From assembly GCA_973895155.1 (NCBI GenBank), contig OZ316892.1, positions 16,606,357 to 16,670,356 of the forward strand: DNA of 64,000 bases. Direction: 5' to 3'. Under the pieces are notes generated by a model. It was given only the letters and a program-made list of their open reading frames with translations. It had not been told where the DNA came from and made no database searches. The stretch's first letter is position 1, and each line of letters starts with the position of its first letter. This DNA comes from Marsupella aquatica. Its lineage: Eukaryota > Plantae > Marchantiophyta. A program made the position numbers and the translations under genes. Positions 2,679-34,570 of this stretch are shown one piece after another.

Positions 2679-2855
2679 TGTCGTGACATATAGTATCGTA
2701 GCCATAGTGTATCGAAAACATACAAGTCACCGGCAAGGCATACGTGCAAGCTGCTAGCAACCAACATCCTGAGAAAAAAGTCCAATCACATTCACAAGTG
2801 CCGAGAAAAAGCAAATGAAGTGGTATGTACGTAGTGGAGGTGTAAACCTCTGTAT
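2679..2855 (-). repeat. Terminal repeat B (177 bp) of the outer copy
   Basis: Homologous to 5402-5578, 5937-6113 and 37259-37434. Adjacent to a C7 run at 2856-2862 (G7 PPT on the sense strand). Confidence 0.9.
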
Positions 2856-2894
2856 CCCCCCCAGACCACAGCCAAAAGGAGGGCTGAAGAAAAT

Positions 2895-5397
2895 TCAGGT
2901 AGCACGTGGAGCACAAGAAGGGCAAAACCATAACCCTTCTGGCACCTGGGTAAGTTCAAGCCGAAGGCAGAAAAGATGGTACCCTCCATTGCAATTGTCA
3001 CACAACAGCATCTAGTCAGCATCATCAATTTGCAAACACACTTTGCAAGGGTAGTCCACAGGTGGAATCCAGGTAGAAGTCACAATGGTGGGATCCAGGT
3101 TAGGCAGATGACAAGGGGCGCAATTCTTGGCATTGTCAGCAATTATGCGCCCATCTGCCCCTTGTAACTCTAGCACTCCAGACGGTCGAATAGCTTTAAC
3201 CCTGAGAATAGTACGACTGGTAGAGGTGTCCAGGGTGTCATTAGCTTGCCGCTGCAAGTACACAAAATCTCCCACATCAAACTTCCTGACCTTGGGCTGA
3301 AAACTGCCCCCTTGTGTGTGTGCATAACGCAATGTGTCCCTGTGTTGTGCAATGGCCAAATTCTCCATGGCCATGGGCATAACCCTCCTGAATAGGGCAG
3401 CCCTCTCAGAGATCACATCAGACCAAGTCACAGCTGAATCCAAGTCCACCACCTGAAGCATGTGAGCAGCAATAGCAGAAGGTGGAACTGGGTGACGACC
3501 AAACAACAAGAAGTAGGGAGAAAAGTTAGACAGTGATGCATGTCTAGACATCCTATACCCCATGGCAATGTAGGGTAAGGCCAGGTCCCAATCCTCCTTG
3601 TTTTTGGTGAGGCAGATCTTCCGAAGGCCCTTCTTGCATGTCTGAACCATGCGCTCTGCCAAGCCATCTGCCTGTGGGTGATCTCGTGATGTCCGGCGAT
3701 GATCAATGAGGGCCTGATCAAGCAGCTCCTGGAACTCTCCTCTAAACTCTGAGCCCTGGTCAGTGAGACATTCTGCACAAGCTCCAAAGCGGCTGAGAAC
3801 TTGTTGCAGGAATGCCTGGCTGGTGCTACGGGAGGTCTTATCCGGCAATGCCACAAGTTCTATCCACTTGGAGAAATGCTCTATCATGATCATGATGTAG
3901 AGATTACCCCGAGATGTGAGGGGTAATTCTCCAGCCAAATCACATGACCAACGATAAAACATGCCCTGAATAGGGAGTGGATGAAGTGTGGGTTGCCGAG
4001 TCGTGAAAGAAGTCCTTACCCTATCACACTGCTCACACCGGGCAATAACATCTCGAACCTGGCCATGCATGCCTCTCCAATGATAATGAGGGACCAAGAG
4101 GCTGTAAGTCCTCTTAACGCCAAAATGACCAAGCTCAGAATGTACCTTACGAATAAGGCCAACCCTCTCATGAATGGGTGGAACCACCACTTCCCTGTCT
4201 GGCAAGCAGCGCACGAGATGATCTCCCTTCCACAAGTAGCGCTTGGACCTTTGCTGAATTCGGTCTCTCTGGGCAGCAGTAACATGTGTGGGGTACTCCC
4301 CATGCTGCAGAAATCTCAGAGTGTCGCTATCCTCCCATATGTCCACCACAGGTTGGTCAACAACATAGCATGGCAGCAAAGCAAGATAGGTCAATGCATG
4401 AAATGTAGGCAGGATGGAAACCTGGTCAAAATCTTGCCGTGCATCTGAGGAATCATCAGAGGTAATCAAAGGGCTGTGGGACATAGTGTCAGCATTCTGA
4501 TGTGTCAAACCAGGCCTATGAATTACCTCAAAGTCATACTCCTGGAGGATGAGTGCCCGACGAGCAAGCTTGCCAGTAACCTTGTCGTTAGTCATCAACC
4601 ACTTCAAGGGCTGGTGGTCGGTGTAGAGAGTAAACCTGGTCCCATAGAGGTAGGGCCTGTAATGTATGACAGCCCACACAACAGCAAGGCATTCACCCTC
4701 ATAAGAAGAATAATGACTCTCTGCCTGATTGTTGCTCCTGGATGCATAGACAATGACGTACTCTTTACGTTCCTCATCATGCTGGCCCAAAATGGCACCA
4801 ATCCCAAGGGCACTCCAATCTATGTGTAGCACAAAGACCTTGTTGAAATCAGGTCTTCTCAGCACCGGGTATTTTGAGAGCTTCTCCTTCAAAGTGGCAA
4901 ATGCTGCCTCAGCATCTGTACTCCATGTCCAAGTCACATTCTTTTTCAACAAAGCATACAATGGGTGTGCAATGGTGCTGAAATCTTTGATGTAGATCCG
5001 GTAGTAATTGCACAACCCAATGAAACTCCTCAAAGTGTGAACATCAGTAGGAGTGGGCATTTCCAAGATGGATACCACCTTGGCCCAGTGAGCCATGGTT
5101 CCATTTGGAAGAATGCGGTGCCCAAGGTATACTACTGATCTGACAGCAAATTCACACTTCTTGGGGTGTATCTTTAGGTTCACCTTCTTAAGCCTCATGA
5201 ATAGCTCCTCAAGGTCAAGTAGATGCTGGTCAAATCCTTTGCTGTGGACCAACACATCATCAATGTAGCATTTTAGAAACTCAGCACCTTGAAGAACCTG
5301 GTCCATGACTCTTTGAAAGAATATGGGCGCATTCTTCAAGCCAAATGGCATCACCAACCACTCCCATAGTTGGTTACTACCATGGAAAGCTGTTTTC
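2895..5397 (-). pseudogene. Outer-copy pol 3' half: RT (YIDD)-RNaseH-integrase-PHD
   Basis: Motifs MPFGLKNAP, YIDDVLV, DWSALGIGAIL, HSELGH..CEQC and WSCDLAG/LTDQGSEF/GLAERMV. The PHD finger is broken by a CAG>TAG stop at 3012-3014. Confidence 0.9.
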
Positions 5398-5401
5398 TGG
5401 C

Positions 5402-6113
5402 TGTCGTGACATATAGTATCGTAGCCATAGTGTATCGAAAACATACAAGTCACCGGCAATGCATATGTGCAAGCTGCTAGCAACCAACATCCTGAGAAAA
5501 AAGTCCAATCACATTCACAAGTGCCAAGAAAAAGCAACTGAGATGGTATGTACGTAGTGGAGGTGTAAACCTCTGTATGGCGTGATAGAAACAAACGTGC
5601 TGAAATCGAATCGAAAACCGGTGAGATGCCAAGGTCGGCCGGGAGCATCTAACGAATCACTATGTGAATTCCGTGTACGGAACCAACGAGCAGCCTCTGA
5701 AAAACCCTGTCTCACAGCGATTCAAGAAGAACTAAAGAACGGCAAAGAAAAACATGCCCTAAGTAGGACCGGGTCCAGGCGTCACACTAACAAACCCCTT
5801 TTGCTTCAAGAATAGCCCAGACTCGCTACAAGAACATGACACTAACTCAAGTAGTACACTAGCCCTAACCATACCTAGCGGGCATGCGAGGGACATGCCG
5901 ATGTGCACAAGCGACACTGTCCCTCGGCATGACAGCTATCGTGACATATAGTATCGTAGCCATAGTGTATCGAAAACATACAAGTCACCGGCAATGCATA
6001 TGTGCAAGCTGCTAGCAACCAACATCCTGAGAAAAAAGTCCAATCACATTCACAAGTGCCAAGAAAAAGCAACTGAGATGGTATGTACGTAGTGGAGGTG
6101 TAAACCTCTGTAT
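5402..6113 (-). repeat. 3' repeat block B1-gc-A2-B2 of the inner copy
   Basis: B1 and B2 (177 bp each) are nearly identical. A2 (356 bp) differs from A1 at about 8 positions, all transitions by eye. Confidence 0.92.
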
Positions 6114-6120
6114 CCCCCCC
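6114..6120 (-). promoter_or_regulatory. Putative polypurine tract (G7) immediately upstream of repeat B
   Basis: C7 on the + strand abuts B1. The same C7 is present at 2856-2862 in the outer copy. Confidence 0.6.
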
Positions 6121-6152
6121 AGACCACAGTCAAAAGGAGGGCTGAAGAAAAT

Positions 6153-9100
6153 TCAGGTAGCACGTGGAGCACAGGAAGGGCAAAACCATAACCCTTCTGG
6201 CACCTGGGTAAGTTCAGGCCAAAGGCAGAAAAGATGGTACCCTCCATTGCAATTGTCACACAGCAGCATCTGGTCAGCATCATCAATTTGCAAACACACT
6301 TTGCAAGGGTAGTCCACAGGTGGAATCCAAGTAGAAGTCACAATGGTGAGATCTAGGTTAGGCAGATGACAAGGGGCGCAATTCTTGGCATTGTCAGCAA
6401 TTGTGCGCCCATTTGCCCCTTGTAACTCTAGCACTCCAGACGGTCGAATAGCTTTGACCCTGAGAATAGTGCGACTGGTAGAGGTGTCCAGGGTGTCATT
6501 AGCTTGCCGCTGCAAGTACACAAAATCTCCCACTTCAAACTTCCTGACCTTGGGCTGAAAACTGCCCCCTCGTGTGTGTGCATAACGCAATGTGTCCCTG
6601 TGTTGTGCAATGGCCAAATTCTCCATGGCCATGGGCATAACCCTCCTGAATAGGGCAGCCCTCTCAGAGATCACATCAGACCAAGTCACAGCTGAATCCA
6701 GGTCCACCACCTGAAGCATGTGAGAAGCAATAGCAGAAGGTGGAACTGGGTGACGACCAAACAACAAGAAGTAGGGAGAAAAGTTAGACAGTGATGCATG
6801 TCTAGACATCCTATACCCCATGGCAATGTAGGGTAAGGCCAGGTCCCAATCCTCCTTGTTTTTGGTGAGGCAGATCTTCCAAAGGCCCTTCTTGCATGTC
6901 TGAACCATGCGCTCTGCCAAGCCATCTGCCTGTGGGTGATCTCGTGATATCCGGCGATGATCAATGAGAGCCTGATCAAGCAGCTCCTGGAACTCCTCTC
7001 TGAACTCAGATCCCTGGTCAGTGAGACATTCTGCACAAGCTCCAAAGCGACTGAGAACTTGTTGTAGGAATTCCTGGCTGGTGCTACGGGAGGTCTTATC
7101 CGGTAATGCCACAAGTTCTATCCACTTGGAGAAATGCTCTATCATGATCATGATGTAGAGATTACCCCGAGACGTGAGGGGTAATTCTCCAGCCAAATCA
7201 CATGACCAACGATAAAACATGCCCTGAATAGGGAGTGGATGAAGTGTGGGTTGCCGAGATGTGAAAGAAGTCCTCACCCTATCACATTGTTCACACCGGG
7301 CAATAACATCTTGAACCTGGCCATGCATGCCTCTCCAATGATAATGAGGGACCAAGAGGCTGTAAGTCCTCTTAACGCCAAAATGACCAAGCTCAGAATG
7401 TACCTTACGGATAAGGCCAACCCTCTCATGAATGGGTGGAACCACCACTTCCCTGTCTGGCAAGCAGCGCACGAGATGATCTCGCTTCCACAAGTAACGC
7501 TTGGACCTTTGCTGAATTCGGTCTCTCTGGGTTGCAGTAACATGTATGGGGTACTCCCCATGCTGCAAAAATCTCAGAGTGTCGCTGTCCTCCCATATGT
7601 CCACCACAGGTTGGTCAACGATGTAGCATGGCAGCAAAGCAAGATAGGTAGATGTATGAAATGTAGGCAGGATGGAAACCTGGTCAAAATCCTGCCGTGC
7701 ATCTGAGGGATCATCAGAGGCAATCAAAGGGCTGCGGGACATAGTGTCAGCATTTTGATGTGTCACACCAGGCCTATGAATTACCTCAAAATCATACTCC
7801 TGAAGTATGAGTGCCCAACGAGCAAGCTTGCCAGTAAGCTTGTCGTTGGTCATCAACCACTTCAAGGGCTGGTGGTCGGTGTAGAGAACAAACCTGGTCC
7901 CATAGAGGTAGGGCCTGTAATGTATTACAGCCCACACAACAGCAAGGCATTCACCCTCATAAGAAGAATAATGACTCTCTGCCTGATTGTTGCTCCTGGA
8001 TGCATAGGCAATGACGTACTCTTTACCTTCCTCATCATGCTGGCCCAGAATGGCACCAATCCCAAGGGCACTCCAATCTGTGTGTAGCACAAAGACCTTG
8101 CTGAAATCAGGTCTTCTCAGCACCGGGTATTTTGAGAGCTTCTCCTTCAAAGTGGCAAATGCTGCCTCAGCATCTGTACTCCATGTCCAAGTCACATTCT
8201 TTTTCAACAAAGCATACAATGGGTGTGCAATGGTACTGAAATCTTTGATGTAGATCCAGTAGTAATTGCACAACCCAATAAAACTCCTCAAAGTGTGAAC
8301 ATCGGTAGGAGTGGGCATTTCCAAGATGGATACCACCTTGGCCCAGTGAGCCATGGTTCCATTTGGAAGAATGCGATGCCCAAGATATACTACTGATCTG
8401 ACAGCAAATTCACACTTCTTGGGGTGTATCTTTAGGTTCACCTTCTTAAGCCTCATGAATAGCTCCTCAAGGTCAAGTAGATGCTGGTCAAATCCTTTGC
8501 TGTGGACCAACACATCATCAATGTAGCATTTTAGAAACTCAGCACCTTGAAGAACCTGGTCCATGACTCTTTGAAAGAATATGGGCGCATTCTTCAAGCC
8601 AAATGGCATCACCAACCACTTCCATAGTTGGTTACTACCATGGAAAGCTGTTTTCTTGCGGTCTTTTGCAAGCAGCAAAATCTGGTTGAAGCCTTGCCTT
8701 AGATCCACAAGAGTGAAGATGTCTGAGTCTCCAATGCTGTCAAATAGCTCCTCTGGCCGCGGCATGGGGTACCTGTCCTGGGGTGTGACCAGGTTCAATG
8801 GCCTATAGTCCCCACACATGCGCTTCTCTGTCCACAATCCACTGGAATCCTTCTTTGCTGGCATCATTATAGCTGCCGCAAAATCTGATGTAGATGGCTG
8901 AATAAGACCAGCTTCATAAAGCTCTTGGCACCTCTCATCCACCAGCTGCCACTCATGCTTACTCAAATGGTGTCTCCGCCTGAAGATAGGTGTTTCATCA
9001 GCCAACTCAATGGAGAACTGCATAGTCTTGCACTTACCCAAGTCCTTCATAGAGAAAGCAAACACATTCTCATGCTTGAGGAGCAAATTCAGTAGCTGGT

Positions 9101-10160
9101 CCTTCTGTCTTTTACTCAGGTGGTTGCCCATGATAAATGTGTAGTTGGCAACACTAGGAATAGGACCTGATGTACTCGTGCTTGAAGAGCCAGAAGTGCC
9201 AGCCTCTCCACTGTCCAAGCTGCTAGCATGCTGCTGATAAGGTGATGAGGCCTCTCTAAGGCCTGTTGTACCTGCTGATCTGAAGTGGTCCACACCATGA
9301 AACTCAGAAATAATGTCAGCCGCATTACAAGGGACCTCCTCCCCCCCAACACTTGGACTGAAGTGGTGAGTGTTGGACAGAGGTAAGTGCACCTGGTCTG
9401 GATGCCATGCAGCAGCACTGTGGAGTGGTAGGGCGGGAGCCCCTAATGCTGGAGGAATGTACATCTGAAAAAGGATGCAAGTGACCAGAAGCCAAGTGAG
9501 AGCATTGAGATCCATTACCCTGCCAAGTAAAGCATTCCTGGCCAGCTTGGTGATTTTGGTGTGACCTGTAGTACCGGGTTGGAAGCCCATAGCCCGTTCT
9601 CTCTCCTCAGGACTAGGTTCATCCCATGTACTGGTAGAATGTCGATAAACCAGACCAGGACCATCACCCTGAAAAGCATGTGCACCTGGAAAGGACACAA
9701 ATGTAGGCCAAGCAGCACGAGGTTGTCCAATGGTATTGGCTGGATACCAAGGTGCTGGCTCTTGCCGTGTAACTGGTTGGCAAGAACTGTCAGGATCCAA
9801 AATCTGGTCCACTGTAAGGTTAGTGTCCCTGGATGTGTGGTGAAGAGCCATCTCCAGCAAGGAAGGTGGTGCAAGGTTAGTCCAAAAGTTACAAAGACGA
9901 TGTGCATAAGAACCACAGTGCACTGCATCAATGGGTGGTCCCAAGTAGTGCTGGACCACACTGAAATCCTCTTTGACCTGTGGACGCTGGTCAAACTGAG
10001 ATGGAGTATTCTCAATGATATAACCAACAGCAGGATAAAGGGATTGAGCCCAGGTGAGAATCTGAACCAATGCTGTGAAAAGGCCAGAACGAGAATCATG
10101 CAGTCCAGCACCGTGACCAGCAGCTGAAAACCCTTGGCATTCCCAACCAGCTATGATCAA
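6153..10160 (-). CDS. Open pol segment: DNMT3-like C-terminal part, RT, RNaseH, integrase, PHD finger (1335 aa)
   Basis: IIAGWECQGF, YIIENT, AHRLCNFWTN, RMCGDYRPLN, YIDDVLV, RNaseH and integrase D,D35E motifs. C-terminal CKVC..CDNC..HLFC..CPSC is a C4HC3 PHD finger. Confidence 0.9.
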   Translation of the reverse strand: MIIAGWECQGFSAAGHGAGLHDSRSGLFTALVQILTWAQSLYPAVGYIIENTPSQFDQRPQVKEDFSVVQHYLGPPIDAVHCGSYAHRLCNFWTNLAPPSLLEMALHHTSRDTNLTVDQILDPDSSCQPVTRQEPAPWYPANTIGQPRAAWPTFVSFPGAHAFQGDGPGLVYRHSTSTWDEPSPEERERAMGFQPGTTGHTKITKLARNALLGRVMDLNALTWLLVTCILFQMYIPPALGAPALPLHSAAAWHPDQVHLPLSNTHHFSPSVGGEEVPCNAADIISEFHGVDHFRSAGTTGLREASSPYQQHASSLDSGEAGTSGSSSTSTSGPIPSVANYTFIMGNHLSKRQKDQLLNLLLKHENVFAFSMKDLGKCKTMQFSIELADETPIFRRRHHLSKHEWQLVDERCQELYEAGLIQPSTSDFAAAIMMPAKKDSSGLWTEKRMCGDYRPLNLVTPQDRYPMPRPEELFDSIGDSDIFTLVDLRQGFNQILLLAKDRKKTAFHGSNQLWKWLVMPFGLKNAPIFFQRVMDQVLQGAEFLKCYIDDVLVHSKGFDQHLLDLEELFMRLKKVNLKIHPKKCEFAVRSVVYLGHRILPNGTMAHWAKVVSILEMPTPTDVHTLRSFIGLCNYYWIYIKDFSTIAHPLYALLKKNVTWTWSTDAEAAFATLKEKLSKYPVLRRPDFSKVFVLHTDWSALGIGAILGQHDEEGKEYVIAYASRSNNQAESHYSSYEGECLAVVWAVIHYRPYLYGTRFVLYTDHQPLKWLMTNDKLTGKLARWALILQEYDFEVIHRPGVTHQNADTMSRSPLIASDDPSDARQDFDQVSILPTFHTSTYLALLPCYIVDQPVVDIWEDSDTLRFLQHGEYPIHVTATQRDRIQQRSKRYLWKRDHLVRCLPDREVVVPPIHERVGLIRKVHSELGHFGVKRTYSLLVPHYHWRGMHGQVQDVIARCEQCDRVRTSFTSRQPTLHPLPIQGMFYRWSCDLAGELPLTSRGNLYIMIMIEHFSKWIELVALPDKTSRSTSQEFLQQVLSRFGACAECLTDQGSEFREEFQELLDQALIDHRRISRDHPQADGLAERMVQTCKKGLWKICLTKNKEDWDLALPYIAMGYRMSRHASLSNFSPYFLLFGRHPVPPSAIASHMLQVVDLDSAVTWSDVISERAALFRRVMPMAMENLAIAQHRDTLRYAHTRGGSFQPKVRKFEVGDFVYLQRQANDTLDTSTSRTILRVKAIRPSGVLELQGANGRTIADNAKNCAPCHLPNLDLTIVTSTWIPPVDYPCKVCLQIDDADQMLLCDNCNGGYHLFCLWPELTQVPEGLWFCPSCAPRAT

Positions 10161-10180
10161 ATCAAGGGAGCCAAGAAGGG

Positions 10181-13100
10181 TTAAGTGCCGGTGCCGGACA
10201 AGCTGGATATCTGGAGGAAAGAAAGAAAATGCAGACTTCCATGCACTATGTGGAAACTGCTGGGGAAATCGCTCTGAAAATTCAGCAGACGGGATTCAGC
10301 CACTTGCCTTGCACTTGGATCAATATCCACATAGATGTACTGCTTCACCACCATGCCAGACTTTAGGAGAGCTTCCAGGCCTGTAGAAATGCCACCAAAA
10401 AGCTCAAGCAATGTAAGGTCATCTGAAGGAGGAGTCCAGGTAACTGGTGCACTCAAGATTGGGGCTATTGGTTGTCCATTATGCTGCCCAAGGTCCTCAA
10501 ATTTGTGCAATGCAGCCACCAAAGGTCCATGGGCTGCTTGGAGCCGTTGTACCACCTCTGGTTGATGATCCACGTTGCTGGAAAGTGCTGCCACACGTGC
10601 AGCAGCATGTGCAGTAGCCACCTCATCCTCATCCTCCTCAATCCAATCCTGCAATGGGTGGTTGACATAGGTAGCTGTGTGCACTGCTTTCAACACACAG
10701 TGGTGAGCCATAGGGGTATGGGCACCATGCAAATCAAGTGGAATGTATCCCAAGTGTGAGCCATCCGTATGCCAATCAACTCTGTAGTATGCATGCTCAT
10801 GCCAGTTGTCAATGGTAAAACCTGGTGGGAACAAAGTCTCCTGGCCAATGAGCACATCATACGTAGTGGCATTGGTAACCAAACATCTGACTGGGAAATG
10901 CAGTTCCTGATCTGTACCTCCATTAAAAGTGAGAGTGAGTAAAGTAGAACTCTCACCCAGCACATCCTCCACAGTGCCACTAGCAGTCGGAATGTGCCAC
11001 CTGGACTGCTGTAAATGATCAATCAGCACTCCCATCTTCTTGGCAAACTGAATGCCCAAGATTACTGGTTGAGCGCCTGTGTCTAGCATGACCACCTGAG
11101 GAGTGTGACCCTCCAACTTGACTGCTGAATTCCTGTTGTCAACAATGGCAATGGTGGTGGAAACTAAAGTCCTGTCACTAGGCACCACTTTTGGCAAATG
11201 ATGAGGTACCTTGTGAAGGGAGTTAGTGTCCATGGTCTTCCCACTCAACAGCATAGCCAGGAAAGATGGAGCAGCATGACCAGAATCAAGTGTAGATCTG
11301 ATCACATAATCTGCAGCAATACTGTCATCTCTACCACTGGAAATCGGTACTGGGATAGCCAAACCAGTGGAAGCATGCAATGGAGAAGAAGAAGGTCCAG
11401 TATTAACATGAGATTGGACCTCCAAAACCGGTGTCACAAGGGCTGATGAAGAATGCAGTGAGCCCTCTAGCGCTCTGATGATAGCTCTAGCATCCAGCTG
11501 TAAATCATGGCAACTGAAAAGTGGAGTGGTAAGAATCCTTTGTGCCATATCGGAGGTGAAATGCTCAAGCAACTCAGGAAAAACAACTCCCTGTGAAATG
11601 TTAGCAGCACCTGGTGGTGGAATGGATGTAGCTGCAGCTCCCTCCCCCCTCGCCAACAAGGTTTAGGGTTTAGGGGACCAGCAGCAAGACCATCAGCTTG
11701 TACAATGTGGCGTGTGGGAGCAATACGGGAGGCAGCACTGGCCTGTTGGTAAGCAAAATAGGAAGGGCAGAATGAATCTGAAAATTCTGCTGTAAGGCCA
11801 GGCTGTGTAGCAGAGGACAGCACACACTCACCCATATGAGCATCAAATGGCAAGCCATAGAAAGAGCGGGGTAGGGGTGCTGAACTGTCAGTGGTGCCTG
11901 GGCCAGGGATGGGTTGCACGTGACCAGCCGGTTGAGAAGGACCAGCAGAGGCAGTGGACTTGCCTTTGATGTTGGCAAGTTGGGCACGTAATGACTCAAC
12001 CTCATGAGTCAGAGACTGGAGTTGAGTGGCCTGTGCGTTGTGAGCCTCCTTCTGAGCGGGTTGCTTCTGTTGCTGCTTGGGCAATTTGTTAGCACTGGAT
12101 GCTTTGCCACTGGAAGGAGGAGCAACTGATGCAGTAGGAGCCCTCCTAGCTGGTGGGGGAGTGGAAATAGGAGCAGGATGAGTGGCCTGCTGTCGTAGCT
12201 GCTTCCTCTCGGGGAATTTGGCAAAACAAACTACCTCCAAGTGGCCCACTTTCTCGCAAAAATCACAAGACAGGTCCTCAGCAACAATATCACATTCATT
12301 AGCCTTGTGATTAGGGTTACCACAGTAGTTGCAAGATGGTAGCATGAAAGCAGCATTTGCTGGCTTGGTCTTGGAACTATACTGTGGCACACGGGAAGGA
12401 GTGGCCAGTGTAGGGGCAGCAGCCTGGTACCTGGATCGCGGTGGACGCGCAATACTGGCCTCATAATATGCACGGGCCAACTCAAGTTTCTCAGCAGTGT
12501 CATAGACATTGAGCAAGGTGTAGCTGTCTCCAAACTCTGAGAATACTTGCTGCAACACTTGTGAATGGAGAGTTGGGGTGCCCTCCAACGCACGAAGATA
12601 GCGATGAGCAGCTTCCAGGTCAGTGATGCTCTGGGTGTCTTCCTTCAGCTTGAGAAGCCGGCGATACAACATCTTCAATGTTTCATCGCGCTGCCTCACA
12701 AATGTGGCCAACTGCATGATTTTGTCAGCACTCTTGATTGGGAATTCCAATTCAAGAACCTGGAAAAACTCAGCCACTGGATCAACAAAGGCAGGGGAAT
12801 CAATGGTGGGAGAAATGCCTGATGTAGCCTATGCCAAGACAGTGGGAGTAACTGGTGCAGTGGTGGGAACTGGAGTAGGAGGGGAAGTGGCAGGAGCAGC
12901 AGCATGGGCTGCAATGGCATTCTGTAATGCCAGTTGTGAGGCAGCCGCAATTGCAGTGGCATAGGCAGGGTTAGGCAATTGTGTGACAACAAGCAGCCGT
13001 TGAGAATGCTGCTCATACACATCCAAAGCCTCGTGGTGCACATACCTGGCTAGCTGCTTAAATGCAAAAGCATTTGTGAAATTGCTGCCATACTTCAACT

Positions 13101-13473
13101 CCAATTCGTAAACGATAGTGTAGAAAGTGGATTTGAACTCACGTAAAGAGACAGTGCCTGGCCGCTCGCTGAAGCGCTCAATGCGGCCAGATGAGTGGCT
13201 GGCATCCATGCTGTATGTTGGTGAAGCTGGAACAATCACCGATGCAGAAGGAGAAAAAGGCAAAGAAGTGATAGCAGGCTTTGGGGTAGAGGTGAAGCGA
13301 CCGCCAAATGTAGCAGAAGGGTTGCGTGGTGTGGGTGTTGCTACTGTCTGCTGACGTCGTCGAAATTGCCGAGACTCCAATGAAATTGGCACCAATGGTC
13401 GTGGATCACTCCGTAAGTGGTACCGGGGTGTTGGTGGCGATGAGCTGCTACCTCCTGGCTCGTCGGCTGACAT
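10181..13473 (-). pseudogene. Inner-copy gag-protease-DNMT N-terminus (frameshifted)
   Basis: Two zinc knuckles (CNYCGNPNHKANEC, CDFCEKVGHLEVVC), protease VMLDTGAQ and DNMT motif I LELFGGISTG. Frameshifts near 10282 and 11665; in-frame TAG at 12829-12831. Confidence 0.85.
11661..11675 (+). repeat. Interstitial telomeric patch (TTTAGGG)x2
   Basis: GTTTAGGGTTTAGGG replaces ~73 bp that are present in the outer copy at 18271-18343. Confidence 0.8.
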
Positions 13474-14906
13474 GCTGCATGCTCACCCAGGGTGCCAATG
13501 GGAAAGAAATTGACAAGAAAAAGGAGTGGCAGCCCCAAGGCTAGGAAATAAACGGTACAAGGCAGCAATGTGTAGAATGTGTAAGCGCTGAGAAACTGTC
13601 AAAGTCTATGCAGATGACATGTGGCGGCAGCAAAGAAATCCGGGAAGAATGGGCCCTTGAAAACATGAATAGGGGCCCCCCTTAAGTCTATACATTGGGC
13701 CCCTTTAAGTGTATACGTCGGGCCCCTATGTGGACCCGAAAAAGGAAGGACCGGCCGGCACGGTGCCCTATGCAAGTAGTCGAGAACAAAGCAAGAGCGA
13801 ACGGAAAGAAATGGGCCCTGCAACACGTGAAAGGGGCCCCTTAAGTGTATACACATCGGCCCAATGTGGACCCGGGAATTGGCAGCAGGTCGATCATCGT
13901 GCAGCGAAAAAGTGAGACAAGCTGAAAAAGGTGAAAAGAAAACGGGAAGAGTGAGGCGAAGAAAAAGAAATGAGCCCTGTGCATAGGGCTTCGCACCCCC
14001 TTCCCTCCTCCTTATGAGCTCCCGAAGCCTCCTTGGGGCTTCGTGCCCTGGCAGGCCTAAGTACTCCCGTGTGAGGGAGTTCGAATTGAACTCCCCTCCC
14101 CTCCTTTAATGCAGCTTAGGGCCTTGTGCCCTCTCCTGGCACTCTCGCTCCCCCTCCTTGCCTCCTTTCATTGCAACATAGGGCCTCGTGCCCACTCCTT
14201 GCACTCTCGCTCCCCTCCTCCTGGCTTTAATTGCTTATTAGGGCCTCGTGCCCTCTCTCCTTGCGCTTGTCTCCCCCTGCTTCAATGCTGCTTCGTGTGC
14301 TGCAGGAGGACTCCCGAGAAGGGAGTCGTATGTACTCCCCCTCCCCCTTTAATGCAGCATAGGGCCTCATGCCCACTCGCTGCTGCCTGCCTCGGCTCTG
14401 TCTCCCCCCTTGCGCTTGTGCTCGCTAGTCGACTCCCTTCCTCCTTAATTAAATGCTGGCAAAAACGAGAGCGCACGATGCCCTATGCGCAGCCTGCCTT
14501 ATGCGATCGGGAGGGAGGCAAAGGGGAGACTATGGCCGAAAACGGCAAAAAAGAGAAAAACGGGGCGCGCGGTCGGAAGGGAAGTGGTCGCGCGGCAGCC
14601 GTGGCCGGGAAAATGCCCATAAAAACTAACAAACAAGGGTCTTAAAAACGCGAGCGAGGCCGCAGCGGCCTATGCAGTCGGCAGCAAGTCGCCGATGTAG
14701 GTCACAAAGAAGGTTGCGGCCGGAAAAGGAAAACCTGGGCCCCGACGGGAGTGTTATGTGTATACACTTAAGTATACACATAACTCCACACTAAACCCAT
14801 AGTTTTGAAGCCTCGTTCCAATGTCTATCAAGGAAATTGCAACGGCTTAACCAAAAATTGTCGAAACTGCCACGAGAAATCTTCTTCCCGTCACCGCTAA
14901 CTCGAG

Positions 14907-15079
14907 AGTTCTTCTTGAATAAAAGGCGTGATAGAAACAAATGTGCTGAAATCGAATCGAAAACCGGCGAGATGCCAAGATCGGCCGGGAGCATCTAACG
15001 AATCACTATGTGAATTCCGTGTACGGAACCGACGAGCAGCCTCTGAAAAACCCTGTCTCACAGCGATTCAAGAAGAACT
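14907..15079 (-). promoter_or_regulatory. Putative self-priming site: 14-bp inverted repeat pairing the sequence just downstream of A1 with a site inside A1
   Basis: AGTTCTTCTTGAAT (14907-14920) is the reverse complement of ATTCAAGAAGAACT (15066-15079). No tRNA-type TGG PBS is present at this position. Confidence 0.55.
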
Positions 15080-15280
15080 GAAGAACGGCAAAGAAAAACA
15101 TGCCCTAAGTAGGACCGGGTCCAGGCGTCACACTAACAAACCCCTTTTGCTTCAAGAACAGCCCAGACTCACTACAAGAACATGACACTAACTCAAGTAG
15201 TACACTAGCCCTAACCATACCTAGCGGGCATGCGAGGGACATGCCGATGTGCACAAGCGGCACTGTCCCTCGGCATGACA
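14925..15280 (-). repeat. 5' terminal repeat A1 (356 bp) of the inner copy
   Basis: Homologous to 5579-5934, 21210-21560, 24698-25051 and 37441-37792. Confidence 0.92.
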
Positions 15281-15284
15281 TGGC

Positions 15285-18200
15285 GGTCCTTTGCAAGCAG
15301 CAAAATCTGGTTAAAGCCTTGCCTTAGATCCACAAGAGTGAAGATGTTTGAGTCTCCAATGCTGTCAAATAACTCCTCTGGCCGTGGCATGGGGTACCTG
15401 TCCTGGGGTGAGACCAGGTTCAGTGGCCTGTAGTCCCCACACATGCGCTTCTCTGTCCACAATCCACTGGAATCCTTCTTTGCTGGCATCACTGTAGCTG
15501 CTGCAAAATCTGATGTAGATGGCTGAATAAGCCCAGCTTCATATAACTCTTGGCATCTCTCATCCACCAGCTACCACTCATGCTTACTCAAACGGTGTCT
15601 CCGCCTGAAGATAGGTGTTTCATCAGCCAACTCAATGGAGAACTGCATAGTCTTGCACTTACCCAAGTCCTTCATAGAGAAAGCAAACACGTTCTCATGC
15701 TTGAGGAGAAAATTCAGCAGCTGGTCCTTCTGTCTTTTACTCAGGTGGTTGCCCATGATGAATGTGTAGTTGGCAACACTGGGAATAGGACGTGATGTAA
15801 TCGTGCTTGAAGAACCAGAAGTGCTAGCCTCTTCACTGTCCAAGCTGCTAGCATGCTGCTGATAAGGTGATGAGGCCTCTCCAAGGCCTGCTATATGTGT
15901 TGCTCGGGTCTGATCCACACCATGAAACTCAGAAATAATATCAGCCACATTACAAGGGACCTCTTCCCCCCCAACACTTGGACTGAAGCGGTGAGTGTTG
16001 AAGAGAGGTAAGTGCACTTGGTCGAGATGCCATGTAACAGCACCATGGAGTGGCAGGGCTGGAACTCCTGATGCTGGATGAATGTACATCTGAAAAAGGA
16101 TGCAAGTGACCAGAAGCCAAGTGAGAGCATGGAGATCCATTACCCTGCCAAGTAAAGCATTCCTGGCCAGCCTGGTGATGTGGGTGTGGGCTGTAGTACC
16201 GGATTGGAAGCCCATAGCCCGTTCTCTCTCCTCAGGACTAGGTTCATCCCATGTACCGGTAGAATGTCAGTAAACCAGGCCAGGACCATCACCCTGAAAA
16301 GCATGTGCACCTGGAAAGGACACAAATGTAGGCCAAGCAGCATGGGGCTGTCTAATGGTATTGGCTGGATACCAAGGTGCTGGCTCTTGCCGTGTAACTG
16401 GTTGGCAAGAACTGTCAGGATCCAAAATCTGGTCCACTGTAAGGTTAGTGTCCCTGGATGTGTGGTGAAGAGCTAACTCCAGCAAGGAAGGTGGTGCAGG
16501 GTTAGTCCAAAAGTTACGAAGACGATGTGCATAAGAACCATAGTGCACTACATCAATGAGAAGGGGTGGTCCCAAGTAGTGCTGGACCACACTAAAGTCC
16601 TCTTTGACCTGTGGACGCTGGTCAAACTGAGATGGAGTATTCTCAATGATATAACCAACAGCAGGATAAAGGGATTGAGCCCAGGTGAGAATCTGAACCA
16701 ATGTTGTGAAAAGGCCAGAACGAGAATCATGCAGTCCAGCACCGTGACCAGCAACTAAAAACCCTTGGCATTCCCAACCAGCTATGATCAAATCAAGGGA
16801 GCCAAGAAGGGTTAAGTGCCGGTGCTGGACAAGCTGGATATCTGGAGGAAAGAAAGAAAATGCAGACTTCCATGCACTGTGTGGAAACTGCTGGGGAAAT
16901 CGCTCTGAAAATTCCAGCAGATGGGATTCAGCCACTTGCCTTGCACCTGGATCAATGTCCACATAGATGTACTGCTTCACCACCATGCCAGACTGTAGGA
17001 GAGTTTCCATGCCTGTAGAAATACCACCAAAAAGCTCAAGCAATGTAAGGCCATCCGGAGGAGGAGTCCATGTAACTGGTGCACTCAAGATTGGGGCTAT
17101 TGGTTGTCCATTATGCTGCCCAAGGTCCTCAAATTTGCGCAATGCAGCCACCAAAGGTCCATGGGCTACTTGGAGCCTTTGTACCACCTCTGGTTGATGA
17201 TCCACGCTGATGGAAAGTGCTGCTATATGTGCAACAACATGTGCAGCAGCCACCTCATCATCATCCTCCTCAATCCAATCCTGCAATGGGTGGTTGACAT
17301 AGGTAGCTGTGTGCACTGCTTTCAACACACAGTGGTGAGCCATAGGTGTATGGGCACCATGCAAATCAAGTGGAATGTAGCCCAAGTGTGAGCCATCCGT
17401 ATGCCAATCAACTCTGTAGTATGCGTGCTCATGCCAGTTGTCAATGGTAAAACCTGGTGGGAACAAAGCCTCCTGGCCAATGAGCACATCATACGTAGTG
17501 GCATTGGTAACCAAACATCTGACTGGGAAATGCAATTCCTGATCTGTACCTCCATTAAAAGTGAGAGTGAGTAAAGTAGAACTCTCACCCAGCACATCCT
17601 CCACAGTGCCACTAGCAGTCCGAATGTGCCACCTGGATTGCTGTAAATGATCAGTCAGCAGTCCCATCTTCTTGGCAAACTGAATGCCCAATATCACTGG
17701 TTGAGCGCCTGTGTCTAGCATGACCACCTGAGGAGTGTGACCCTCCAACTTGACCGCTGAATTCCTGTTGTCAACAATGGCAATGGTGGTGGAAACTAAA
17801 GTCCTGTCACTAGGCACCACTTTTGGCAAATGATAAGGTACCTTGTGAAGGGAGTTAGTGGCCACGGTCTTCCCACTCAACAACATAGCCAGGAAAGATG
17901 GAGCAGCATGACCAGAATCAAGTGTAGCTCTGGTCACACAATCAGCAGCAATAGGTACTAGGGCAGCCAAACCAGTGGAAACATGTAAAGGAGAAGAAGA
18001 AGGTCCAATATGTACATGAGATTGGACCTCCAAAACCGGTGTCACAGGGGCTGATGAAGAATGCAGTGAACCCTCTAGCGCTCTGATGACAGCTCTAGCA
18101 TCCAGCTGTAAATCATGGCAACTGAAAAGTGGAGTTGTAAGAATCCTTTGTGCCATACCGGAGGTGAAATGCTCAAGCAGCTCAGGAGAAACAACTCCCT

Positions 18201-19911
18201 GTGAAATGTCAGCAGCACCTGGTGGTGGAATGGATGTGGCTGCAGCTCCCTCCCCCCTCGCCAACAAGGTGCGCTCTTCAGCAAGTGTGAGGGGCTGAAA
18301 AGATTGGGGCATGACAGCCCGAGCTCCCCTGGCTCTAGTCATAGGACTAGCAGCAAGACCATCAACCTGTACAATGCGGCGTGTGGGAGCAATACGGGAG
18401 GCAGCACTGGCCTGCTGGTAAGCAAAATAGGAAGGGCAGAATGAATCTGAAAATTCTGCTGTAAGGCCAGGCTGTGGAGCAGAGGACAGCACACACTCAC
18501 CCATATGAGCATCAAATGGCAAGCCATAGAAAGAGTGGGGTAGAGATGCTGAACTGTCAGTGGTGCCTGGGCCAGAGATGGGTTGCACGTGACCAGCCGG
18601 TTGAGAAGGACCAGCAGAGGCAGGTGACTTGCCTTTGATGTTGGCAAGTTGGGGCACGTAGGGACTCAACCTCATGAGTCAGAGACTGGAGTTGAGTTGC
18701 CTGGGCATTGTGAGCCTCCTTCGGAGCTGGGTTTAGGGTTTAGGGTTTAGGGTTTAGGGTTCAGGGTTCAGGTTTAGGGTAACATGAAAGCATGAAAGCA
18801 ACATGTGCTGGTTTGGTCTTGGAAGCATACTGTGGCACACGGGAAGGGGTGGCCATTGTAGGGGCAGCAGCCTGGTACCTGGATCGCGGTGGATGCGCAA
18901 TATTGGCCTCATAATGTGCATGGGCCAACTCAAGTTTCTCAGCAATGTCATAGACATTGAGCAAGGTGTAGCTGTCTCCAAACTCTGAGAATACTTGCTC
19001 CAACACTTGCGAATGGAGAGCTGGTGTGCCCTCCAATGCGCGAAGATAGCGATGAGCAGCTTCCAGGTCAGTGATGCTCTGGGTGTCCTCCTTCAGCTTG
19101 AGAAGTCGGCGATACATCATCTTCAATGTTTCATCGCGCTGCCTCACAAAGGTGGCCAAGTGCATAATTTTGTTAGCACTCTTGATTGGGAATTCCAATT
19201 CAAGAACCTGGAAAAACTCAGCCACTGGATCAGCAAAGGCAGGGGAATCAATGGTGGGAGAAATGCCTGATGTAGCCTATGCCAAGATAGTGGCAGTAAC
19301 TGGTGCAGTGGTGGGAACTGGAGTAGGAGGGGAAGTGGTAGGAGCAGCAGTATGGGCTGCAATGGCATTCTGTAATGCCAGTTGTGAGGCAGCCACAATT
19401 GCAGTGGCATAGGCAGGGTTAGGCAATTGTGTGATAGCAAGCAGCCGTTGAGAGTGCTACTCATACACATCCAAAGCCTCGTGGTGCACATACCTGGCTA
19501 GCTGCTTAAATGCAAAATCATTTGTGAAATTGCTGCCATACTTCAACTCCAATTTGTAAACGATAGTGTAGAAAGTGGATTTGAACTCACGCAAAGAAAC
19601 AGTGCCTGGCCGCCCACTGAAGCGTTCAATGCGGCCAGATGAGTGGTTGGCGTCCATGCTGTATGTCGGTGAAGCAGGAACAACCACGGATGCAGAAGGG
19701 GTAAATGGTAATGAAGTGATAGCAGGCTTTGGAGTAGTGGTGAAGCAACCGCCAAATTGAGCAGAAGGATTGCGTGGTGTGGGTGCTGCTGCTATCTGTG
19801 GACGTCGTCGAAATTGCCGAGACTCCAATGAAATTTGCACCAATGGTTGTGGATCACTCCGTAAATGGTACCTGGGTGTCGGTGGCGATGTGCTGCTACC
19901 TCTGCTGACAT
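15285..19911 (-). pseudogene. Outer-copy gag-protease-DNMT3-like-RT N-terminus
   Basis: ORF 16267-18675 carries LDTGA, LELFGGISTG, YIYVDID, LDLIIAGWECQGF, YIIENT and AHRLRNFWTN. 15571-16215 carries RNALLGRVMDL. Several stops and frameshifts; the Gag knuckles are deleted. Confidence 0.88.
18729..18780 (+). repeat. Interstitial telomeric patch, about 7 TTTAGGG/TTCAGGG units
   Basis: Replaces ~275 bp, including both CCHC knuckles, present in the inner copy at ~12063-12337. Confidence 0.9.
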
Positions 19912-21209
19912 GCTGTGGTGTCCTTGCCGGATCGACGGTCTGATGTGTATGCCGGGCCCTCAACCTTACGTAGATGCCATGTGGCGGCAGCAAAGAAATT
20001 GGGAAAATATGGGAAAATATGGGCCCTATTCAGCGGTAGTCGAATATGTGAACCGGGCCCCTCTTAAGTGTATACACATTCGGGCCCCATTGTGGACCCG
20101 GAAACTGCAGCCGGACCGGTCGAGTGTGTATACACACTCGTAGCACACGGCCCTATGCAGCGCTAGTCGGACGGCTATGGAAAAGTCAAGGAGTCACTAT
20201 GGCCGACGAGGGAAAGAAACGGGAGGGCACGATGCCCTATGTACATACTGCGGAGCACAAAAGGTGTAAGGAGGAAAAGGCAAGACGCAGCGTGGCAAGG
20301 GCGAAGTAAAGAGATGGCGAAAAGAAAAGCATCGGGCCCCCATAGAGGGGCTACAAACTCCCCCCTCCTCTCGTGCAATGTAATTTGGGCTCGTGCCCTG
20401 GCAGGAGCACTCCCGAGAAGGGAGTCGACTTAACTCCCCTCCCCCTTTAATGCTTCATAGGGCCTCGTGCCCTCTCCTCTCGCAGGCTCGCTTCAACTCC
20501 TCCCCCTCGTTAATGCTGAATGGGGCCTTGTGCCTGGCAGAAGTGTGAGTCCCAAGAGGAGGGAGTCGAATGTACTCCCTCTCCTCCTTTTAATGCAGCA
20601 TAGGGCCTTGTGCCCTCTCCCTACGCTCCTGCCTTCACTCCCCCTCCCCCTTCTTTAATGCTGCCTAGGGCCTCGTGCCCTCTCCAGGCGCTCCTTCCCC
20701 TTCCTCTGGCTGCTTAGAAATGGGCGAGGCAAGGGCACGATGCCCTATGCACAGCCTGCACACCAAAGCGGAAGGAGGTCGAGAGAAAGAGAAGAAAACG
20801 GGGCCCCCAAAGGCGAAAACGTAAAGAGGAGGTCGGGGTGGAAGCGTGTCGAAACGAGGGCACACGGCCCTATGCAGGCATCTCGCTGCGGCCGAGGCAA
20901 AACTCGCCGGCAGCTGTGGCCGGGAATGCAAAAACAACCCCAAAAGCAGTCGAGGCAGCAAGCGGCAGTAACAGTAAGAAGGAGCAAAGGGGTCGCGGAT
21001 GCAACCAGAAAATGAACTCTGGACCTCCTCGGGAGCACTGATATGTGTATACACTTAAGTATACACATAACAACATAAACCCATAACTTTCAACTCGTCG
21101 CTCCGATGTTCGTCAAAGAAATTGCAATAGCTTCACCAGAAATTGTCGAAATCGTCACGAGCAATCTTCTTCCCCTCACTGCCAACTCGGCAGTTCTTCT
21201 TGAATAAAA

Positions 21210-21560
21210 GGCGTAAGAGAAACAATCGTACTGAAATCGAATCAAAACCGGCAGGATGCCAAGATCAGCCGAGAGCATCTAACGAATCACTGTGTGAATC
21301 CCGTGTACGGAACCGACGAGCACTGTCTGAGCTCTGTCAACAACGATTCAAGAAGAATTGCCAACCCACAAAGAAAGACATGCCCTAAGCAAGCAAAGCC
21401 CTGACGTCACACTAACAAGCACATTTGCTTCAAGAACGGCCCAGACTTGCTACAAGAACATGTCGCTAACTCAGCTAGTACACTAGCCCTAACTACATAC
21501 CTAGCGGGCAGGCGAGGGACATGCCGATGTGCATAAGACGCACTGTCCCTCGGCATGACA
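21210..21560 (-). repeat. 5' terminal repeat A of the outer copy
   Basis: Homologous to A1, ends CATGACA, and has no B sequence next to it. Confidence 0.9.
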
Positions 21561-21994
21561 CCACTTCCTTCTCGCCATGCGCCCCGGCTGCCCTTATGGA
21601 GATGCCAGGTGGCGCCCACCGGGGCTGCCCCTTATGGACTTCTTCACTCCCTTTCCTCAATGCCCCTTTACTCCAAAAAACTTTCAACCTCTCAAAAGAA
21701 CTCATTCTCTTCTTTTGGCCCTTGTTGTGGTTATACCCATTTAACCCCAAAAAGAAAAGTTAACCTCTTGGACTTATAGGGGGAACTTGACAATGGTTCA
21801 AGCGAAATGGCAAGGCCACCTATTTGCCCCCCCCCCTAGGTTGCCGTGGCCGTTTAGAACAATTATGAAAATAAAATAAAATAAAATAAAGTCCTCCTGG
21901 CAGCACCAACTTGAAAGGATGGAATTAACTCAAAAAAAATTTAAAATGGCTTATTTATAGTGGCTATTAACAATGCACAGGCCTCCGCGACCAG

Positions 21995-23212
21995 TTATGT
22001 GTGACTTCCCGTGACGGGGTACCCGTCACATAGCTCCTCTCTTAATTGCGAAGCGCCCCCGCGAGCACCATACTCCTCCTTCGGGTAATACTTCTTTAGA
22101 TGTTCTTGATTGATCCGGGTGTTGAGTAGTTGCCCCTCCAACGTCCTGAGTTGAACCGACCCATTGGAGTAGACCGTATCGACAACGTAGGGCCCCATCC
22201 AACGTGTATGTAACTTCTCGGGGAAATGCATGAAACAACTGTCGTAGAGGAGCACCAAATCCCCCCCTTCAATGGACACACGGCGGAGTCGGGAATTGTA
22301 GTGCAACTTTTGTTTGCCTTGTTGCTGCTCCATGCAAGTCAAAGCCTCCTCTCTTACCTCCGTAAGGTGCTCCAATTGTTGGATCCATGCAGCTACACTA
22401 CTTTCTTCCCCTTCCCTTTCCCGTGTCAAGATTCGAATGGTGGGCACCTCGAATTCCACTGGCACCAAAGAATGTTGACCAAACACAAGGAAATAGGGGC
22501 TGTGGCCAGTGGTGGTCTTATGAGCCAAGTTGTAAGCATACATAGCGGCCAACAACTTGAGATCCTAATCCGTCTTGTGAGCTGACACCGTCTTGTTGAG
22601 AATCTTGCCCATGATCCCGTTCGCTCTCTCAGTGAGCCCGTTGGCTCGAGGATGGTACGGAGTGGTCTTCCTATGTGAGATCAAGTAGTTCTCCGTCAAA
22701 TGTTCAATTGTATGATTGAGAAAGTGAGTACCCCTGTCACTCACAAGCTCCAAGGGTGGACCAAACCGTGTAAAAATCTGCTCGTACAAAAAACGTGCCG
22801 TGGTGTTGACATCATCCTTTGCAGTAGCTCTGGCCTCCACCCACTTGGTGGCATAGTCCGTTGCCAGAATGATGTAACGCTTCCTCCCTCTTCTGGTGAT
22901 GGGAGTGAAAGGGCCAATGAAATCAACTCCCCACTTCTCAAAGGGTGCAAGGGGGAGTATGGGCACCAACGGGTGTCGGGAGGAAGGTCCAGGTTTGCCT
23001 TGCCGTTGGCAGGGATCACATCTCTGAATGTATCTATGTACGTCCCGAAAAAGAGTTGGCCACCAATAGCCAGCATCTAGTATCTTTCTTGCTGTGGTCT
23101 CCCTTGCAAAGTGGCCACCAGCTTCCTCCTCATGTAGTGCCGCCATGACTGTACGTATCTGCGCTTCCTCCAAACAACGACAAAGACGGTGGTGCAATCC
23201 CTGATGTACCAA
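21995..23212 (-). pseudogene. Integrase remnant of a different, Athila/Tat-like Gypsy (target of the outer copy)
   Basis: GGHFARETTARKILDAGYWWPTLFRD, CDPCQ, FEKWGVDFIGP, SDRGTHF, NGLTER and KLHTRWMGPY (GPY/F). Stop at 22565. Confidence 0.85.
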
Positions 23213-23214
23213 AA

Positions 23215-33929: not shown

Positions 33930-34570
33930 GTTAAAAATTAAGAAGATCACAAGTTAAGGCATCTTGGTGCCCACATCCGGAAGGGTGGTGTACTTTTTGA
34001 CCCCAATTATACCTTTAAACTTAATAAGATTACAGGTTAAGGTATTCTGGTGCACACATCCGCAAGGGTCGGTGTATTGTTTGACTCCAATTGTAACTTT
34101 AAAATTAATAAGGTTACAAGTTAAGGCATTCTGGTGCACACATCCGGAAGGGTTGGTGTACTGTTTGACCCCAATTGTAACTTTAAAATTAATAAGGTTA
34201 CAGGTTAAGGCATTCTGGTGCACACATCCGCAAGGGTCGGTGTACTGTTTGACCCCAATTGTAACTTTAAAATTAATAAGGTTACAAGTTAAGGCATTCT
34301 AGTGCACACATCCGCAAGGGTCGGTGTACTGTTTGACCCCAATTGTAACTTTAAAATTAATAAGGTTACAAGTTAAGGCATTCTAGTGCACACATCCGCA
34401 AGGGTCGGTGTACAGTTTGACCCCAATTGTAACTTTAAAATTAATAAGGTTACAAGTTAAGGCATTCTGGTGCACACATCCGCAAGGGTCGGTGTACTGT
34501 TGACCCCAATTGTAACTTTGAACTTGATAAGGTTATGAGTTAAGATATTACTTAGGGTGCACACATCCTT
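33930..34570. repeat. Tandem array, 84-bp unit, ~7.5 copies
   Basis: Unit starts (GTTAAGG..) at 33953, 34036, 34120, 34204, 34288, 34372 and 34456. Confidence 0.95.

Follow-up and report, generated by a model that had tools for sequence, protein, structure and literature searches.

A DNMT3-like cytosine methyltransferase domain in the Pol of nested, split-repeat Gypsy retroelements of the liverwort Marsupella aquatica

Two copies of one Gypsy retroelement, both on the minus strand, lie nested in a 64,000-nt stretch of the liverwort Marsupella aquatica (GenBank assembly GCA_973895155.1, contig OZ316892.1, positions 16,606,357 to 16,670,356; here called the window). The inner copy (5402-15280) sits in the reverse transcriptase (RT) of the outer one (2679-21560) and reads gag, protease (PR), a 305-codon insert, RT, RNase H (RH), integrase (INT) and a PHD finger. 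Judged by its sequence and predicted fold, the insert is a DNMT3-type cytosine methyltransferase (DNMT) domain. The element almost certainly belongs to the KnitGypsy-Dnmt3 lineage described from Klebsormidium nitens, with the domain inside Pol and both local copies broken. As to its function, we see about an even chance that the Pol-borne domain is packaged with RT and likely methylates the new complementary DNA (cDNA) of the element itself.

A DNMT3-like domain between protease and reverse transcriptase

The domain occupies the following positions.

9505-10417, minus strand: DNMT3-like C5 methyltransferase domain, inner copy
16135-17049, minus strand: DNMT3-like domain, outer copy, in frame with the protease

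A first-pass annotation, made from the letters alone, had claimed such a domain between protease and RT in both copies, and we indeed found the motifs at these places on the minus strand, between an aspartic protease and RT. PF00145, the profile it had named as a check, matches the inner pol open reading frame (ORF) at 24.8 bits and the outer domain, when read through with X, at 22.4 bits, the curated cut-off being 22 bits; the outer ORF as it stands scores 20.5. The motif strings it quoted all occur where it had put them, except that motif VIII, given as AHRLRNFWTN for both copies, is true of the outer copy only.

A family profile run against solved structures ranked DNMT3A first (71 bits, E 6e-19), then DNMT3C and DNMT3B, with weaker scores for DRM-type enzymes (31-39 bits, E 4e-9 to 1e-6) and M.HhaI (33 bits, E 2e-7); no DNMT2 chain was among its matches at E 0.01. 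In addition, the predicted model of the domain (pLDDT 87, pTM 0.89) superposed on DNMT3A with a Z score of 27.3 and a root-mean-square deviation of 2.7 over 269 residues, bacterial enzymes reaching Z 22-23. That is, the closest solved relatives by both sequence and fold are human DNMT3A/B, at an identity to DNMT3A of about 25% and with motifs I to X in unpermuted order. The ESM Atlas gave nothing but generic phage PF00145 clusters.

One clade of carriers, two domain positions in Pol

Mosses, liverworts and green algae all yielded related domains. Searching with the domain returned 151 relatives of similar length plus 30 longer ones, and a profile search returned 566 cluster representatives at E 1e-30. 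Carriers named by the domain were Calypogeia fissa (the closest named, 76%), Sphagnum, Closterium, Chromochloris and Monoraphidium; a search chosen by RT added Marchantia polymorpha, Klebsormidium nitens and Haematococcus, while cluster look-ups yielded as further names only Coleochaete, Sphagnum jensenii, Closterium and Scenedesmus. Among 38 loci fetched by the domain, many of them duplicates, a protease lay upstream in 30 and RT downstream in 32, the rest ending early or being internally deleted. The two annotated Marchantia polymorpha genes Mp2g26090 and MARPO_0091s0058 (P0199 and P0220) are PR-DNMT-RT-RH fragments of such elements, with GWPC as motif IV.

Two architectures emerged. Carriers named as streptophytes read PR-DNMT-RT-RH-INT-PHD and those named as chlorophytes RT-RH-DNMT-INT-PHD, some members of the latter (post-RNase H) group, such as P0131 and P0138, having a G-patch domain between DNMT and integrase. 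In an RT-RNase H tree, all DNMT-bearing elements (36/36) formed one clade against 12 outgroup sequences, with an ultrafast bootstrap (UFBoot) support of 100; its members include Klebsormidium KFL_009030040, the two Marchantia genes, Closterium, Haematococcus and Scenedesmus. The IQ-TREE sets comprised 18 pre-RT elements and 18 of 63 post-RNase H elements, with the outgroup being what the searches returned; sixteen tandem animal Gypsy proteins were excluded from the RT tree, and support values come from unrooted trees. The RT of the window groups with the DNMT-bearing Gypsy of Klebsormidium (UFBoot 100; FastTree 1.0). The first-pass annotation had rightly cited Klebsormidium as a precedent, and both the RT clade and the shared domain order place the element within that lineage itself, a closer tie than a parallel.

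The post-RNase H group is itself a clade in the RT tree (UFBoot 100), and the DNMT trees split the same two groups (UFBoot 100; FastTree 0.998). Its point of attachment is less stable: the DNMT tree puts it beside the window clade (UFBoot 96), the FastTree RT tree beside a Klebsormidium clade (0.94), and the IQ-TREE RT tree makes it sister to a weakly supported pre-RT group (55). Because of this instability, the trees are compatible with either position being ancestral and with relocation as well as re-capture. The simplest reading of the sequences would be one ancient capture of DNMT3 by a Gypsy lineage, though horizontal transfer or a re-capture of the DNMT could also have produced the pattern.

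Absence from most family members, which the first-pass annotation had named as a way in which its claim might fail, is not what we observed. The RT-chosen search returned 82 in-clade proteins, 36 with the domain and 46 without. In 44 of the latter the protein begins no more than 160 residues ahead of RT, in another it begins 242 residues ahead, and the last stops soon after RNase H; with the post-RNase H group set aside, all 18 in-clade proteins that start 270-1431 residues before RT, and can thus be scored, have the domain. The single unscorable exception is P0234, a truncated post-RNase H relative. Some of the short in-clade proteins may be natural separate pol ORFs, in which case sublineages may have lost the domain. 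Finally, the RT sister group (P0245, P0252, P0257 and P0263; UFBoot 87) has a Dam domain between protease and RT, and in three of the four a PHD finger before the integrase. The DNMT3 lineage and this Dam group thus appear to share a methyltransferase slot in Pol.

Conservation of the domain and damage in the window copies

Across 207 near-complete family domains, the residues expected for catalysis are nearly invariant: the catalytic Cys in 203/204, the motif VI Glu in 205/206, and the two motif VIII Arg in 198/204 and 196/204. The Pro-Cys dipeptide of motif IV is absent from both window copies, which have Glu-Cys instead. The first-pass annotation had noted this change together with the retained Cys, correctly for both copies. 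Since Glu precedes the catalytic Cys in 131 of 204 domains, with Pro in 61, and since the two forms are mixed in each half of the tree, Glu-Cys is the majority state of the family and not a sign of decay.

Each window copy is nevertheless damaged in its own way. The inner domain has a 1-bp frameshift near 10283-10290, a 6-bp in-frame gap near 9932, and a Cys in place of the second Arg of motif VIII (AHRLCNFWTN). The outer domain has an in-frame stop at 16267-16269 and a replacement of the conserved Ser that follows the catalytic Cys, so the earlier description of both copies as frameshifted holds for the inner one, by a single base, and not for the outer domain. The catalytic set of Cys (motif IV), Glu (motif VI) and Arg-x-Arg (motif VIII) is complete in the outer copy and lacks the second Arg in the inner. 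Contigs from the public runs X2, X3 and X6 span the whole domain, and all listed depth in X2 and X3 has the family-typical base at the inner motif VIII change, which is therefore private to this copy. Run X1, which we guess to be RNA, gave eight contigs of at most 95% likeness and is uninformative on expression.

When the window domain was compared with related loci, pN was 0.23 at a pS of 0.70, with synonymous sites near saturation; RT had a lower long-term pN (0.14). Median ratios of nonsynonymous to synonymous change (dN/dS) were 0.43 for the domain, 0.40 for RT and 0.50 for integrase, over 24 distinct loci of 37 examined. The K. nitens domain has been reported to be under purifying selection (Ka/Ks < 0.2; PMC5890265).

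The two copies may have a mixed history. Their coding parts are 93-97% alike, whereas the outer A1 repeat and leader are only about 72-83% like those of the inner, a mismatch hinting at a recombinant. C-to-T differences per site between them amount to 0.096 at CG, 0.057 at CHG and about 0.02 at CHH, the pattern that host methylation would be expected to leave. Both copies have the same in-frame gag stop (12829-12831 inner; 19277-19279 outer), reflecting either a defective common parent mobilized in trans or read-through. Plant-type telomere repeats (TTTAGGG) fill one deletion joint per copy, in different places (11660-11676 and about 18722-18780); this looks like the patching of breaks with telomere sequence.

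Split repeats and a proposed circular route

The ends of the element do not follow the usual pattern of paired terminal repeats. The features concerned, together with the remaining domains of the inner copy, are as follows.

5402-15280, minus strand: inner element, A1-[gag-PR-DNMT-RT-RH-INT-PHD]-B1-A2-B2, ends TG...CA
5398-5401 and 15281-15284: target duplication of the inner element, 4 bp, TGGC
2679-21560, minus strand: outer element, A1-[ORFs]-B1 only, ends TG/CA
2675-2678 and 21561-21564: target duplication of the outer element, 4 bp, CCAC
14925-15280, minus strand: repeat A1, inner copy, left end TGTCATG, with the predicted self-primer (15066-15079) inside
14907-14920, minus strand: predicted self-priming primer-binding site, inner copy, 14/14 complementary to 15066-15079
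11467-13482, minus strand: inner gag region, with a weak zinc knuckle and the in-frame stop
10832-11122, minus strand: inner aspartic protease, VMLDTGA
7794-8831, minus strand: inner reverse transcriptase core and RNase H
6936-7436, minus strand: inner integrase, zinc-binding and core domains
6171-6305, minus strand: inner C-terminal PHD finger
6114-6120, minus strand: polypurine tract (G-run) immediately before B1, inner copy
5937-6113, minus strand: repeat B1, inner copy, followed by a 2-nt spacer (5935-5936) and A2, the putative internal integrase-site joint
5579-5934, minus strand: repeat A2, inner copy, 98% identical to A1
5402-5578, minus strand: repeat B2, inner copy, right end ...TCACGACA
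37259-37792, minus strand: solo A-B unit, begins TG and ends CA, 4-bp target duplication ACCA
23303-25051, minus strand: third 5' end, truncated (A1 plus leader), of a related subfamily

The same arrangement recurs in other loci. The full A1-ORF-B1-A2-B2 form was present in 5 of 21 loci of at least 10 kb, whose repeats have no blastn match to those of the window, and in 16 of 38 loci, a count that keeps duplicates, pol was followed by a B-A-B array. All three window insertions start with TG, end with CA and are flanked by 4-bp target duplications. The same holds for four of the five full-form loci, the duplications having been read by eye from the flanks.

Putative priming sites are likewise recurrent. 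A G-run immediately precedes B1 in all ten elements examined. The stretch just after A1 is complementary to a segment inside A, over 14 bp in the inner copy and over 11-16 bp in five of eight loci, compared with control maxima of 7-10 bp; the helix exceeds the control maximum in all three window A1 copies, in one of them only just. Two paired changes in this helix distinguish the two families, and in the loci the self-primer segment begins some 30 nt downstream of a TATA box. No tRNA-type primer site was seen by eye after A1. As for the joints, 12 of 13 loci, scored by pattern and with duplicates kept, have B running into A as CA-NN-TG, the NN being a two-base spacer. The A-B joint is ragged, the solo unit having six more bases than the inner copy. 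One further locus (L037:700-740) retains roughly 30 nt from the end of B, with the B-A joint uncut, upstream of A1, in a copy that is internally deleted and ends in a single B.

The priming and long terminal repeat (LTR) scheme that we infer is the following. Reverse transcription would be self-primed next to A1, and the plus strand would be primed at the G-run before B1. With priming at these two sites, the true LTR would therefore be B+A, and the ends of the linear cDNA would lack integrase sites. These ends would then join into a circle, which integrase would open by cutting the internal CA-NN-TG joint, inserting A1-ORF-B1-A2-B2. A 2-LTR circle would give this full form, and a 1-LTR circle, or later recombination between B1 and B2, the A1-ORF-B1 form of the outer copy. 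A precedent for the cutting step is the foamy-virus integrase, which cuts palindromic 2-LTR joints (PMC1180852). From the sequence features together, we regard integration by this circular route as probable.

We also considered a tyrosine-recombinase retrotransposon of the PAT/Ngaro type, which is defined by a tyrosine recombinase in place of a DDE integrase. This candidate was rejected: the element gave no match to a recombinase family, and has instead an rve (DDE) integrase and 4-bp target duplications.

Possible role of the enzyme

Because both positions, before RT and between RNase H and integrase, stay inside Pol, the domain would enter the particle, where cDNA is made. Once packaged, it would most likely methylate the cDNA of the element de novo. 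The PHD finger may add a targeting step. Its best solved matches are CHD4, WSTF, KDM5 PHD1, ATXR5 and BAZ2, and it lacks the Trp that marks H3K4me3 readers; fingers of the CHD4, BAZ, KDM5 PHD1 and ATXR5 type are readers of the unmodified H3 tail. We infer that this finger, with its likeness to readers of unmethylated H3K4, would steer insertion to silent chromatin. A new copy would then arrive premethylated, probably at CG and/or CHH as with other DNMT3s, and would resemble old heterochromatin. De Mendoza et al. suggested de novo methylation of cDNA for DIRS elements (PMC5890265). In yeast, SymbioDIRS-Dnmt3 adds CG methylation de novo (PMC5890265), and moss DNMT3b makes CG and CHH methylation (PMC6453930). 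Intact members of the family probably have an active domain and, if they do, cDNA is its likely main substrate. The full scenario, in which capture preceded the chlorophyte-streptophyte split, two slots in Pol were used, the Glu-Cys enzyme is active, and a methylated circular cDNA is aimed by the PHD finger at silent chromatin, we put forward only tentatively.

Several observations weigh against these proposals. In yeast, KnitGypsy-Dnmt3 gave no DNA methylation, a result that its authors considered inconclusive as DNMT3B also failed (PMC5890265). Most members have Glu instead of Pro ahead of the catalytic Cys, as described above. The linker after the domain has the same dN/dS (0.43) as the domain, the pairs compared are nonindependent, and dead loci give such a test little power to discriminate. 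A comparison of the inner with the outer copy gave 25 nonsynonymous to 9 synonymous differences in the domain, versus 27 to 39 in PR, RT, RH and INT combined (p=0.003), with a dN/dS for the domain of about 0.75; from this excess, domain constraint looks relaxed locally relative to the rest of Pol. CG depletion as a footprint of self-methylation had to be rejected, because a DNMT-free Harbinger transposase is more depleted (CG observed/expected 0.13) than the element (0.27). The 46 of 82 in-clade proteins without DNMT include 44 that cannot be scored, so DNMT-less sublineages may exist. With respect to the circular route, no matching target duplication flanks locus L019, a primer helix above control is missing from three loci, and the complete mirror arrangement (A-B-A-ORF-B) was not seen among the loci examined.

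Some of these points would fit other roles. The domain could act on host chromatin, either during integration or later, with the PHD finger of the integrase as its tether, and there remodel the insertion site or silence competitors. The likeness of the finger to those of CHD4, BAZ, KDM5 PHD1 and ATXR5, the binding of H3K4me0 by animal DNMT3s (PMC6453930) and the placement of the chlorophyte DNMT directly before the integrase would all suit such a role, yet RT and RNase H separate the two in the streptophyte form, and the Klebsormidium methylome is not unusual (PMC5890265); on balance we find it unlikely. We likewise doubt that the domain is a noncatalytic or weak DNA-binding module, serving as a decoy to shield cDNA or tie up host DNMT partners. 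While the loss of the motif IV Pro in most members and the inactivity of the Klebsormidium domain in yeast (PMC5890265) could be read this way, the catalytic Cys, Glu and both Arg hardly vary, the glycines of the S-adenosylmethionine-binding motif I are retained, and Pro-Cys and Glu-Cys forms are mixed in each half of the tree.

There is also little to recommend the idea that the domain mattered in an ancestor and is now dispensable and decaying in the family of this host. It draws on the nonsynonymous excess between the local copies (p=0.003) and on the fact that both are broken in the domain and share the gag stop; but only two copies are compared, with most differences private to one, contigs of high depth in related runs span the full domain without the inner motif VIII change, and the domain evolves faster than RT even in the long term. 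An RNA substrate, with 5-methylcytosine placed on the RNA of the element rather than on DNA, is very unlikely. Although that RNA is packaged with Pol, and de Mendoza et al. raised RNA methylation for a LINE-borne DNMT (PMC5890265), both sequence and fold point to DNMT3, DNMT2 chains being absent from the profile matches, and the DNMT3 of a DIRS-class retrotransposon methylates DNA (PMC5890265). Methylation of its own cDNA in the particle is the role that we favor for the domain.

Relation to known elements

KnitGypsy-Dnmt3 of K. nitens (de Mendoza et al. 2018, PMC5890265) likewise has an unpermuted Dnmt3 in a Gypsy Pol and DIRS-like split repeats. KFL_009030040, which shares the PR-DNMT-RT-RH-INT order and RT clade with the window element, is presumably one of the published copies. 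The two differ in motif IV (GWEC in the window element, GWPC in KFL_009030040); moreover, the window element has a PHD finger, none being mentioned in the main text on KnitGypsy-Dnmt3, and we propose a mechanism for the repeats, none being offered in the accessible text (PMC5890265). KnitGypsy-Dnmt3 was described there as an acquisition of the K. nitens lineage, whereas the window holds a land-plant copy, with named relatives in Calypogeia, Marchantia, Sphagnum, Closterium and chlorophytes. SymbioDIRS-Dnmt3 of Symbiodinium shares a DNMT3-type domain in Pol but is of the DIRS class and, according to its authors, an independent capture (PMC5890265). DAM-LTR retrotransposons are also Gypsy elements with a DNA methyltransferase in Pol; they differ in having an adenine enzyme and a PHD finger before the integrase, the window element having a cytosine-type enzyme and the finger after it (bioRxiv 10.64898/2026.05.21.726589).

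Host enzymes of the DNMT3 type (PpDNMT3b, PMC6453930; human DNMT3A/B) have the same fold, motif order and catalytic residues. In contrast to host DNMT3, no DUF3444 follows the window domain. Self-priming Gypsy elements of the Tcn1 and Tf1-sushi groups also have a primer site complementary to their own repeat and not to a tRNA but, unlike the window element, are chromodomain elements (PMC6317226).

The DAM-LTR preprint (bioRxiv 10.64898/2026.05.21.726589) names "streptophytes (Gypsy-DNMT3)" and PMC12344493 mentions "streptophytes", in neither case with a species in the accessible text. The main text of the REXdb survey has neither "PHD" nor "methyltransferase" (PMC6317226), and the accessible text of PMC11982613 adds nothing. 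Our literature search found no report of land-plant (liverwort, Sphagnum), Closterium or chlorophyte members, although the supplementary trees of the 2018, 2025 and 2026 papers may include land-plant copies, nor of the RNase H-integrase position or the Glu-Cys motif, which supplements may also hold. On PHD-bearing bryophyte Gypsy and split-repeat Gypsy elements it found nothing beyond the cited papers, most subscription papers lying outside it. The lineage itself is known; the window element adds a member, together with a wider host range and a testable replication route, and, as far as our literature search reached, the second position in Pol and the family-wide Glu-Cys motif are new.

Other features of the window

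The Harbinger-type transposase (PF04827) lies at 58676-60019, and a NAM-associated ORF at 56781-57473 is probably its partner gene. A host gene, encoding a cytochrome b5-fused fatty acid desaturase in a single ORF, occupies 61435-62853. The window further contains a fragment of another integrase (21995-23236), two coiled-coil-like ORFs beside the outer insertion site (546-2201) and an 84-bp tandem array (33903-34574).

Implications

Gypsy-DNMT3 elements have been characterized in one alga, where the enzyme test failed (PMC5890265). With carriers in Marchantia, Sphagnum and chlorophytes, the question why a transposon carries an enzyme of a class that silences transposons becomes testable in genetic models, and the Glu-Cys active site offers a test of the need for the motif IV proline. 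The end structure provides a concrete explanation for split repeats on an element with a DDE integrase; tools that seek paired terminal LTRs would miss such elements, and element-borne domains can make DNMT3 genes look more numerous than they are in annotations of bryophytes and algae. Should the full scenario above hold, the element would set a silencing mark on its own DNA ahead of landing.

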